A stretch of 47,597 nucleotides of DNA, taken from contig JAQIBE010000250.1 of the NCBI GenBank assembly GCA_027859235.1, positions 1 through 47,597 on the forward strand, read 5' to 3'. The first letter of the stretch is position 1; the number at the start of each line of letters is the position of its first letter. Position numbers and translations under genes: made by a program. The notes under the pieces were generated by a model. It made no database searches and was not told the origin of the DNA. It saw only the letters and a program-made list of their open reading frames with translations. This document shows positions 14,377 through 17,097 of the stretch, in pieces. This DNA comes from Desulfobulbaceae bacterium (lineage in GTDB: Bacteria; Desulfobacterota; Desulfobulbia; Desulfobulbales; SURF-16).

Positions 14377-17097
14377 ATGAAATCGGGTAGTCGTTTAGAA
14401 CGTATATTAAAAGCGGGTCATTTTGCTGTGACAGGTGAGCTTGGACCGCCTAAATCCAGTGATCCAGAGGTGGTTCGCCAGAAGGCTCGGATACTCAAAG
14501 GGCATGTTGATGCGGTAAATATTACTGATTGTCAGACAGCCATTGTCCGCATGTCTTCTATCTCTGCGGGTCTCATAACCCAACAGGAAGGTCTTGAGCC
14601 TGTAATCCAGATGACTTGCCGTGATCGTAACCGTATTGGTATGCAGTCCGATATTCTCGGTGCCTCAGCCCTCGGTCTAAAGAACCTTCTCTGTCTCACT
14701 GGTGATCATCAGAAGTTTGGTAATCACCCCGGTTCAAAAGGCGTCTTTGATATGGACTCTATTCAAATGCTCGGTATGGTCAAGACCATGCGGGATGAGA
14801 AGGAGTTCCAATGTGGTGAGGCCATTAAGGGTGACGCTCCTAAATTGTTCCTGGGCTGTGCTGCGAATCCCTTTGCCTATCCCTTTGAGTTCAGGGCCAA
14901 ACGTCTTGCCAAAAAAGTGGCTCAGGGTGCTGACTTTGTGCAGACCCAGATTATCTATAATGTAGATAAATTTGCGAAATTCATGGAAATGGTTCGCGAT
15001 CTTGGTCTTCACGAGAAATGTCATATCCTGGCCGGTGTTACCCCGCCTAAATCATTAGGTATGGCTCGGTACATGCAGAAGTTTGTGCCCGGTATGGACG
15101 TTACAGATGAAGTGATTCAGAGGTTGCAGGACGCGAAGGACAAGCAGGAAGAAGGGATTCAGATCTGTGTTGATATCATCAATCAGATCAAGGAAATTGA
15201 AGGTGTTGCCGGTGCCCATGTCATGGCTATTGGCTGGGAAGAGGCTGTGCCTGAAATTATCAGCCGCGCCGGTCTTTCCAGCCGCCCCGTGCTTGACGAT
15301 GATCTTCCTGCTGTTGAGAAGGCTAGAGAGTCCATTGTTGTGACCACGGCCCCGCTTGATACAGCCAAGGCTGATGCGATTCTTGCGGAAGCCAAAGCGC
15401 ACGCAAAACGAATTGTTGCTGAGGCACAGGCTGAAGCGGATAAGTTTGATCAGGCCAAAGCCCATGCGGTACAACTGCTTGCAGATGCTAAAGCTTCTTC
15501 AACCCCAAATATTGAAAATACAGTTAATCAAGATATAGAAGCAGGAGAACATGAGATGAATGAACAAGAACGGTTACTTGCGCTTGAATCTGTGACCAAT
15601 GGATTAAATGCATTGAAAGCTGCCTTTAATCTGACAGATGAGCAATTTGAAGCATTATCAAGCTTTGCCGGGGCTCAAAACATCCTTGGGAAGGTTCCCA
15701 ATGCAGCTTCCCCAGTTGCACCCGCTTCAACATCGGCTGCGGTTGCCGCTCCTGTTGAAACTGTAAGTGCACCAGCTGCAACAGCCGCTCCTGCAGCCGC
15801 CTCCATTGAAAAGACACCGCGAACACCACAAACGGCTGAGGATCTTCCTCTAGAGGTTGTGAAACGTTATGAAGCCTTAATGGAAAGGGCAGGGGGTGTT
15901 TTGCCCAGTGCGTTTACTGTTGATGATTCAGCTGAGCAAGAAACTGCCGCTGCACCTGCGCAAGCAGCAGAAGTTGAGGCTGCACCAGTAGAAACAGCGA
16001 AACCTGCCGCCCCAGCAGTGAAAAAAACTAAAGCAAAATCTGCCGCACCAGCAGTGAAAAAAGCGAAAGCAAAACCGGCGGCTTCTAAGGCCCCTGTCGC
16101 CGGTGATGCCGGTTCCTTTGCTATAGAGACAACGCCGCTTGCTGAACGTGCTTCAAAGGTTCCTGTCACGGCCTACACGGCTAAATACACGGGTGCTATT
16201 CGTGAAACCACCCTTGGTAACGGCGACAATACCATCACCATCGGTGGTGAGTCGACAATGCCTTTCCAACTCTTTGAAGGGAGTATGGCCAATAAGCCAC
16301 GTATCGCCATGGAAGTTGTTGATTCCGGCACGGATGGATGGCCTGAAACCATTACCCGTCATTTTGCAGACGTTCTGGATAACCCCGTAGCCTGGGCCCA
16401 AAAATGTGTTGCTGAGTATGGTGCCGATGCGATTTGTGTCTCCCTGACCTCAACGGATCCAAACGGCATGAACAATGGGGCTGATGCCGCTGCCAAAACA
16501 GCTGCCGCAGTTATTGATGCCGTTGACGTGCCTGTCATTGTCTGGGGTTGTGAAAACGCTGAAAAAGATACTGATACCCTGCGTGAATTGACCTCACTCA
16601 TCGGTGATAAGAAGGTTTGTCTGGCGCCGCTTTCTGAGGCAAACTACCGCTCCCTGGGTGCCACCGCAATGGCGTTTCAGCATCCGATTGTTTCGGCTTC
16701 CCCCATTGATGTAAACCTTGCCAAGCAGCTTAACATCCTCATGGAAAATCTGGGTGTGAGTTTGAACAATGTTATGATCGATCCGTCTGTCGGCGCACTT
16801 GGCTATGGTATTGAGTACACCTATTCTGTTATGGAGCGTATTCGGCAAGCGGCCTTAATGCAGCAGGACGAGAAGTTACAGGTACCTATTATTTGTAATC
16901 TTGGTCGCGAGGTTTGGAAGGCTAAGGAATGTCGACTGCCTTCTGATGCAATCATCGGTGATCAGGAAACACGCTCCCTCATGATGGAAGCCATTACTGC
17001 AAGTTGTATGCTCATGGCGGGCGGTGAGCTGATGATCATGCGTCATCCTAAGGCTGTTAGTCTTACCCGCGCTATGATCGATGGTTTAATGGCGTAA
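14377..17097 (+). CDS. fusion protein: MetF-type methylenetetrahydrofolate reductase domain, Ala/Pro/Lys-rich linker, then corrinoid Fe-S protein small subunit (AcsD/CdhD)
   Basis: Uninterrupted 906-codon ORF. Residues ~1-300 carry MTHFR-family features ([24 protein letters not shown]...LLCLTGDH). Residues ~590-906 are collinear with AcsD ([42 protein letters not shown]). The region in between is low-complexity. Confidence 0.85.
   Translation: [906 protein letters not shown]
16004..16075 (+). repeat. 36-nt tandem duplication inside the MetF~AcsD linker
   Basis: ctgccgccccagcagtgaaaaaaactaaagcaaaat (16004-16039) is followed directly by ctgccgcaccagcagtgaaaaaagcgaaagcaaaac (16040-16075). They encode [11 protein letters not shown] / [11 protein letters not shown]. 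Confidence 0.9.

Follow-up and report, generated by a model that had tools for sequence, protein, structure and literature searches.

In organisms of the Moorella thermoacetica type, the methylene-tetrahydrofolate (methylene-THF) reductase MetF and the two subunits of the corrinoid iron–sulfur protein (CFeSP), AcsC and AcsD, are separate proteins, and MetV occurs together with HdrABC–MvhD. In the Desulfobulbia, by contrast, MetF and AcsD form one chain, and this fusion has been noted before. Melton 2016, on D. alkaliphilus, lists an "mthfr/acsD ... fusion" with a citation of Pierce 2008, and its cluster figure, modelled on delta proteobacterium MLMS-1 as given by Pierce et al. 2008, includes a "pulE" gene in the D. 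alkaliphilus/MLMS-1 cluster. The pathway table of Hashimoto et al. 2022 (PMC9751629) enters "metF, acsD" under the single Desulfolithobacter locus GF1_14200 and places "acsE" elsewhere in the genome, at GF1_31690. Here, we describe the corresponding gene in a 47,597-nucleotide stretch from a Desulfobulbaceae bacterium (contig JAQIBE010000250.1), the whole of which is referred to as the window. Judged from its sequence, this gene is likely to be orthologous to the mthfr/acsD (metF-acsD) fusion noted earlier in the Desulfobulbia, and its product would be an active MetF tethered to the CFeSP.

As a gene, the fusion is already known, named and catalogued in genome papers and expressed as protein, and acsE is present in such genomes. 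An earlier note on this DNA had known of no described example; that claim falls, as the fusion is named in both publications cited above and our orthologue search found it to be common and already annotated across the clade. It goes unmentioned in Thorup 2017 and in a 2026 paper on the Wood–Ljungdahl pathway (WLP) of Desulfobacterota, and a literature search returned nothing under "metF-acsD"-style names or in cable-bacteria papers discussing the reductase. The present analysis contributes the spacer anatomy, the linkage pattern of MetV and AcsE, and the recurrence of AcsD fusions.

A single gene for MetF and AcsD

The gene and its two enzymatic domains lie in the window as follows.

14377..17097, plus strand: metF-acsD fusion gene, complete, 906 amino acids (aa) plus stop (open reading frame (ORF), Pfam and NCBIfam)
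14377..15291, plus strand: MTHFR/MetF TIM-barrel domain, aa 1-305 (PF02219, alignments, invariant residues, fold with a template modelling (TM) score of ~0.8)
16117..17094, plus strand: AcsD (CFeSP small subunit) domain with a conserved lead-in, aa ~581-905 (Pfam, NCBIfam, PDB matches, fold)

A single unbroken ORF leads from the ATG at 14377 to the stop codon at 17095-17097, with a Shine–Dalgarno-like AAGG ~10 nt 5′ of the ATG, which itself is located 68 nt past the CooS stop codon. The layout consists of the MTHFR/MetF barrel, a spacer of ~280 aa and the AcsD barrel proper (aa ~598-905), and an AlphaFold2 (AF2) model of the fusion, built on 54 homologues, displayed two confident barrels. A protein identical to the window fusion is already deposited in public collections (P0001). 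The earlier description of 2721 nt without a stop or change of frame was borne out, and every motif that it quoted was found in the translation.

Conservation of this arrangement was assessed by scanning one genome per species, which yielded 137 matching stretches, the best 80 of which underlie the locus counts given here. Both domains were encoded in one ORF in 72 of these 80 species-level loci; seven of the others are cut by contig ends, and in a single one, L041, the two domains fall to separate but overlapping ORFs. In the latter (2455-5183), the MTHFR and AcsD parts occupy ORFs 2455-4023 and 3762-5183, probably because the spacer there contains a frameshift or a sequencing error. A protein search further retrieved 755 relatives, and all 120 of the best ones listed carry both Pfam domains at a length of 850-930 aa; many of the listed relatives are named Desulfobulbaceae, Desulfurivibrionaceae, Desulfocapsaceae or Desulfolithobacter, and the fusion loci include the cable bacteria Ca. 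Electrothrix and Ca. Electronema. The gene order FolD-CooS-fusion-AcsB-AcsC-FdhA-HdrA recurs across related loci, and Desulfolithobacter dissulfuricans, an isolate with a complete genome (AP024233.1), has the same arrangement. The fusion is real and common, and it is present throughout the Desulfobulbia.

The split ORFs of L041 are what would be expected if the continuous frame had arisen from two separate genes, through an assembly join or a frameshift that was missed. We give this explanation a vanishingly small chance and rejected it, because one ORF recurs across 72 of the 80 independent species-level assemblies, including the complete isolate genome, while more than 100 database clusters share the two-domain architecture at 850-930 aa, and the spacer insertions and deletions in an alignment of the fused proteins all preserve the frame.

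Comparison with the described fusions revealed the same two domains in the same order and at ~900 aa in the mthfr/acsD proteins of MLMS-1, D. alkaliphilus AHT2 (DaAHT2_0827) and Desulfolithobacter (GF1_14200), and their clusters, like that of the window, contain a pulE-like ATPase, folD, acsA, acsB, acsC and formate dehydrogenase. GF1_14200 (P0065) is 71% identical to the window fusion over the best local alignment and displays no architectural difference from it. In the Desulfolithobacter proteome (PMC9751629), this 897-aa protein was recorded at a normalised value of ~0.125-0.129, close to AcsB (0.12) and CooS (0.10-0.12), with AcsE at 0.42 and a second, YitJ-type MTHFR (GF1_05580) near 0.01-0.02. 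Compared with the Moorella type, the window fusion shares the MetF-family barrel, and its AcsD part is ~41% identical to 4djd_D by structural alignment.

Profile searches supported the assignment of the N-terminal domain to the MTHFR family, as the earlier note had proposed, with a PF02219 match over aa 6-299 that spans profile positions 1-287 of 287 (E 9e-40, 137.2 bits against a cut-off of 24). The modelled domain superimposes on Thermus MTHFR 7th5_B with a TM score of 0.81 and on E. coli MTHFR with ~0.8. When aligned to Thermus and human MTHFR, the residues E21 (ExxPP), D110 (GD) and Q191 (TQ) coincide with the conserved catalytic and flavin-contact positions, and all three are invariant across 54 fused proteins; we take them to be the equivalents of E. 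coli Glu28, Asp120 and Gln183. The domain falls with MetF proteins that are MetV-associated or come from anammox bacteria and not with E. coli-type NAD(P)H MetF, and its closest unfused relative is the MetF of anammox Brocadia (64% identity). On the basis of sequence and predicted fold, we regard the N-terminal barrel as, most probably, a MetF-type methylene-THF reductase that is competent for catalysis.

For the C-terminal domain, PF03599 (CdhD) matched aa 611-851 (E 1e-42, 146.6 bits against a cut-off of 24.8), and aa ~598-905 fall into the AcsD/CdhD delta-subunit subfamilies, with 367 bits for NF003376 (cut-off 280) and, below the threshold of 430, 305 bits for the WLP_AcsD family NF040759. 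Matches to solved CFeSP small subunits were strong (2h9a_B, E 5e-84; 4djd_D, E 2e-81), and the modelled domain superimposes on 2ycl_B with a TM score of 0.90. By the agreement of profile, solved-structure and fold matches, the C-terminal barrel is assigned to the CFeSP small subunit AcsD, in line with the earlier reading.

AcsD was also identified in other fusions, namely AcsB-AcsD (P0232, 1209 aa) and AcsD-CooS (P0144, 1122 aa). In these, as in the window fusion, AcsD is tethered to a Wood–Ljungdahl enzyme, but the partner is a different one, and the conserved hairpin module of the MetF-AcsD spacer, described below, is lacking. Such recurrence points to selection, on more than one occasion, for tethered forms of the CFeSP small subunit. 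A further protein, P0259, is listed as an AcsD fusion alongside P0144, P0232 and P0121.

The connector between the two barrels

Four elements were delineated in the spacer.

15361..15495, plus strand: long amphipathic spacer helix, aa 329-373, with the conserved core LAEAKAEAEKIIAAARAEAE (conservation, AF2)
15532..15699, plus strand: conserved helical-hairpin module, aa ~386-441 (alignment, AF2)
15700..16116, plus strand: low-complexity Ala/Pro/Lys(/Glu) spacer, aa 442-580, containing a single short helix, aa 492-504 (composition, alignment, predicted local distance difference test (pLDDT))
15996..16076, plus strand: tandem repeat of 36 bp, 2.2 copies with 86% matches, encoding 12-residue-like units

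Among the best 80 loci, the spacer between the two domain matches measures 227-322 aa, with a median of 280. After the MTHFR barrel, its order is a short acidic stretch, the conserved helix, a variable gap, the gap-free hairpin module, ~140 low-complexity residues and the AcsD lead-in. The earlier note had described a flexible linker of ~270 aa; a long Ala/Pro/Lys-rich spacer is indeed present, but it holds within it a conserved helix and a hairpin with an invariant core. The amphipathic Ala/Lys/Glu helix and the Ala/Pro/Lys tracts that the note had recognized are both there, and the helix is predicted by AF2 as well.

The helix displayed conservation values of 0.54-0.76, with A339, A343, I346 and A350 invariant, and was predicted to be helical at a pLDDT of ~80-86 in a focused AF2 model. 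The hairpin module is still better conserved (0.71-0.88 across 67 species), free of gaps, and contains 19 invariant residues in a pattern that includes AL....GL..L....L.D.QF.A...FA; the focused model shaped it as two helices with a pLDDT of 85-88. By a local profile hidden Markov model, the module was found only inside fused proteins in a comparison covering 270 proteins and every locus ORF, and a recognizable homologous copy is located in the spacer of the divergent fused locus L082. Pfam searches of the module up to E 10 gave noise only (SCAB_CC, E 0.13; TAL_effector, E 0.08), and Foldseek found no significant PDB neighbour (best E 4.2). An NCBIfam DivIVA match in the spacer (E 6e-4, 20 bits against a cut-off of 260) was discarded as a product of Ala/Glu/Lys helix composition. 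The helix and the hairpin, both conserved, probably act in oligomerisation or docking.

The remainder of the spacer is of a different character. Residues 442-585 consist of 31% Ala, 12% Pro and 8% Lys, first as an Ala/Pro-rich and then as an Ala/Glu/Lys-rich tract, and the low-complexity region aligns variably, with a pLDDT below 35 outside its short helix. It seems to grow by local duplication, as the 36-bp tandem repeat indicates. The likeness to the swinging arms of 2-oxoacid dehydrogenase E2 proteins, which the earlier note had drawn, stands as far as composition and layout are concerned, since in both cases low-complexity Ala/Pro/charged linkers lie on either side of a small helical fold set between larger domains. 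Unlike the E2 arms, the fusion spacer yielded no match to a lipoyl/biotinyl carrier or to an E3_binding/PSBD domain (Pfam up to E 10 on the spacer and Foldseek against the PDB for the module), and no covalent swinging cargo is known for it.

Such a connector also allows for the possibility that the fusion serves translational coupling only, with the chain being cut in the Ala/Pro-rich spacer so that MetF and AcsD act as separate proteins, as they do in Moorella. Long disordered Ala/Pro/Lys tracts are typically protease-sensitive, and the published proteome data are at the peptide level only. The length of the spacer is nevertheless conserved, and selection on the helix and the invariant-core module across at least 67 species would be hard to explain if these were discarded; moreover, the same hairpin module is kept in a lineage that is only 59% identical. 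Cleavage is, in our judgement, unlikely, and an intact product of 97 kDa is what we would expect.

Gene neighbourhood and candidate partners

The fusion is embedded in a plus-strand cluster whose order is Fhs (6709-8490), PulE-like ATPase, FolD, CooS/AcsA, fusion, AcsB, AcsC, GltD/NfnB-like-FdhA, HdrA and MvhD. The genes that bear on its putative function are the following.

11372..12256, plus strand: FolD, source of the methylene-THF that the MetF domain would reduce
12323..14308, plus strand: CooS/AcsA, CO dehydrogenase
17136..19343, plus strand: AcsB, acetyl-CoA synthase
19492..20847, plus strand: AcsC, CFeSP large subunit (FeS and CdhD domains), the expected AcsD partner (synteny conserved)
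25202..28282, plus strand: HdrA-like flavoprotein with an in-frame UGA at 25418-25420, candidate electron-input partner
28282..28878, plus strand: MvhD-like protein with an in-frame UGA at 28480-28482 in the motif GG-U-QLGECHY

HdrA and MvhD, which the earlier note had placed in the cluster, are thus both present, as they are in the Moorella type. At 20964-25067 (plus strand), a GltD/NfnB-like flavoprotein (Fer2_4, Fer4_20, Pyr_redox_2) is in frame with the formate dehydrogenase alpha subunit, and the frame contains a UGA at 23439-23441, a probable selenocysteine codon in the motif HCARL-U-HAPTV, giving ~1367 aa if read through. The two parts share one frame in the window, whereas in Desulfolithobacter they are separate genes of 414 and 997 aa. 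In the mechanical ORF list, the UGA of HdrA splits the gene into pieces of 72 and 883 aa, and gene calling split it in the same way in L082 and L083. Three putative selenoprotein genes (GltD/NfnB-like-FdhA, HdrA and MvhD) accordingly follow one another, and hairpins resembling selenocysteine insertion sequences lie 3′ of all three UGAs, folding only slightly better than shuffled sequences (z -1.3 to -1.5). Farther 5′, a PulE/T2SSE-type ATPase with MshEN and a C-terminal cyclic-nucleotide-binding domain (8728-10947, plus strand) is located between fhs and folD and keeps this position in the related loci that reach that far. NifU, NifS and a ThyX-family gene lie 5′ of fhs (3382-5446 and 5580-6536, plus strand); the position of NifS and ThyX is kept in a handful of related loci reaching that far, where NifU was not probed.

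Divergent fused lineages provided hints toward possible partners. At 50% clustering, only two other fused representatives were obtained, P0121 (1038 aa, with tetratricopeptide (TPR) repeats in the spacer) and P0122 (845 aa). In the loci of these two, L082 and L083, the gene order is CooS-HdrA-MvhD-Fer4-MvhD-MetV-(MTHFR-AcsD)-AcsB; L082 continues with AcsC-AcsE, and the L083 contig ends earlier. The MetV stop codon overlaps the fusion start in L082, and among the loci compared MetV adjoins the fusion in these two only. Homologues of the L082 MetV were found in Dissulfurirhabdus, Dissulfurimicrobium and Thermodesulfobacteria and, at ~60% identity, under Desulfurivibrio and Desulfobulbaceae labels. 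An unlinked operon of Fer4 (186 aa), MvhD/FlpD and MetV, with no MetF beside it, was identified in L084 (9003-10669) and L085 (8770-10672), and this triad is the same as that directly 5′ of the fusion in L082 and L083. Because of the gene order in the divergent lineages and the orphan MetV operon, MetV, MvhD, Fer4 and HdrA are the most plausible electron-input partners of the fusion, as far as gene content and order can indicate. The earlier idea of a MetF/CFeSP/HdrA-MvhD supercomplex gains comparative support from the HdrA-MvhD-Fer4-MvhD-MetV genes 5′ of the divergent fusions, where MetV is adjacent to the reductase as in the Moorella type.

Proposed role of the tethered reductase

Several observations weigh against an active MetF that is tethered to the CFeSP and fed by these partners. 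The N-terminal domain scores far below the E. coli-type MetF equivalog TIGR00676 (63.4 bits against a cut-off of 293.7), and the proteome evidence for GF1_14200, being shotgun and peptide-level, is silent on the integrity of the 97-kDa chain. The ~140 disordered residues of the spacer would give proximity and not a defined channel. No MetV was found in the window or in L001-L081 (three probes; PF12225), and no HdrB/C domain among the window ORFs scanned; an AcsE/Pterin_bind gene was likewise absent from the window and, in the 80 related loci, from the 10 kb around the fusion. The AcsE probes were the L082 AcsE and a Moorella MeTr sequence, which matched PDB 2e7f over 262 of 262 residues and was also validated against 1f6y. 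The link of the L084 and L085 contigs to fusion-carrying genomes is through their labels, Desulfurivibrio sp. and Desulfobulbaceae. In the window clade, unlike in the Moorella type, MetV, HdrB/C and AcsE are unlinked to the cluster, and because they are not near the fusion in the window and the 80 loci, any complex must assemble from unlinked genes.

The lack of a linked AcsE could also mean that the MTHFR-like domain is no longer a reductase but a methyltetrahydrofolate (CH3-THF)-binding methyltransferase module that replaces the missing AcsE. Archaeal CdhDE, which moves the methyl group without AcsE, provides a precedent for such an arrangement. We nevertheless consider this replacement highly improbable and dropped it: acsE is encoded elsewhere in Desulfolithobacter and strongly expressed there (PMC9751629), and in L082 it adjoins AcsC in the same cluster as the fused gene. 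Moreover, the MTHFR catalytic residues Glu, Asp and Gln never vary among the fused proteins, contigs bearing the label of this clade retain the gene for the partner MetV, and the WLP would otherwise be left without a methylene-THF reductase, save for the low-abundance YitJ-type enzyme.

With a reductase at the N-terminus, we propose that the ~280-aa connector would hold both enzymes on one polypeptide and fix a 1:1 MetF:AcsD stoichiometry, while the C-terminal barrel would form a corrinoid-holding pair with AcsC, whose gene is the second one downstream. In this way, the final reduction of the methyl branch would be brought together with the methyl acceptor, possibly with some kinetic benefit. 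The transfer of the methyl group from CH3-THF to Co(I) would still proceed via a separate, unlinked AcsE. The channelling of CH3-THF that the earlier note had envisaged would, if direct to the corrinoid, still require AcsE, which is unlinked in the 80 loci and encoded elsewhere in Desulfolithobacter.

The spacer helix and module may promote oligomerisation or offer docking sites, perhaps to MetV/MvhD/Fer4/HdrA or to AcsE. In a more specific version, which we put forward quite tentatively, the helix would oligomerise a MetF core, the hairpin would dock Fer4-MvhD-MetV/HdrA or AcsE, and the CFeSP would be carried on long arms, giving a metabolon undescribed in Wood–Ljungdahl organisms.

If the chain is intact, the Desulfobulbia, which include cable bacteria and many sulfur-disproportionating autotrophs, would physically couple the formation of methyl-THF to the corrinoid methyl carrier. 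Such coupling would bear on how non-acetogens wire electron donors to the methylene-THF reductase step, which is thermodynamically awkward, and on how the enzymes of the Wood–Ljungdahl pathway are organised in cells.

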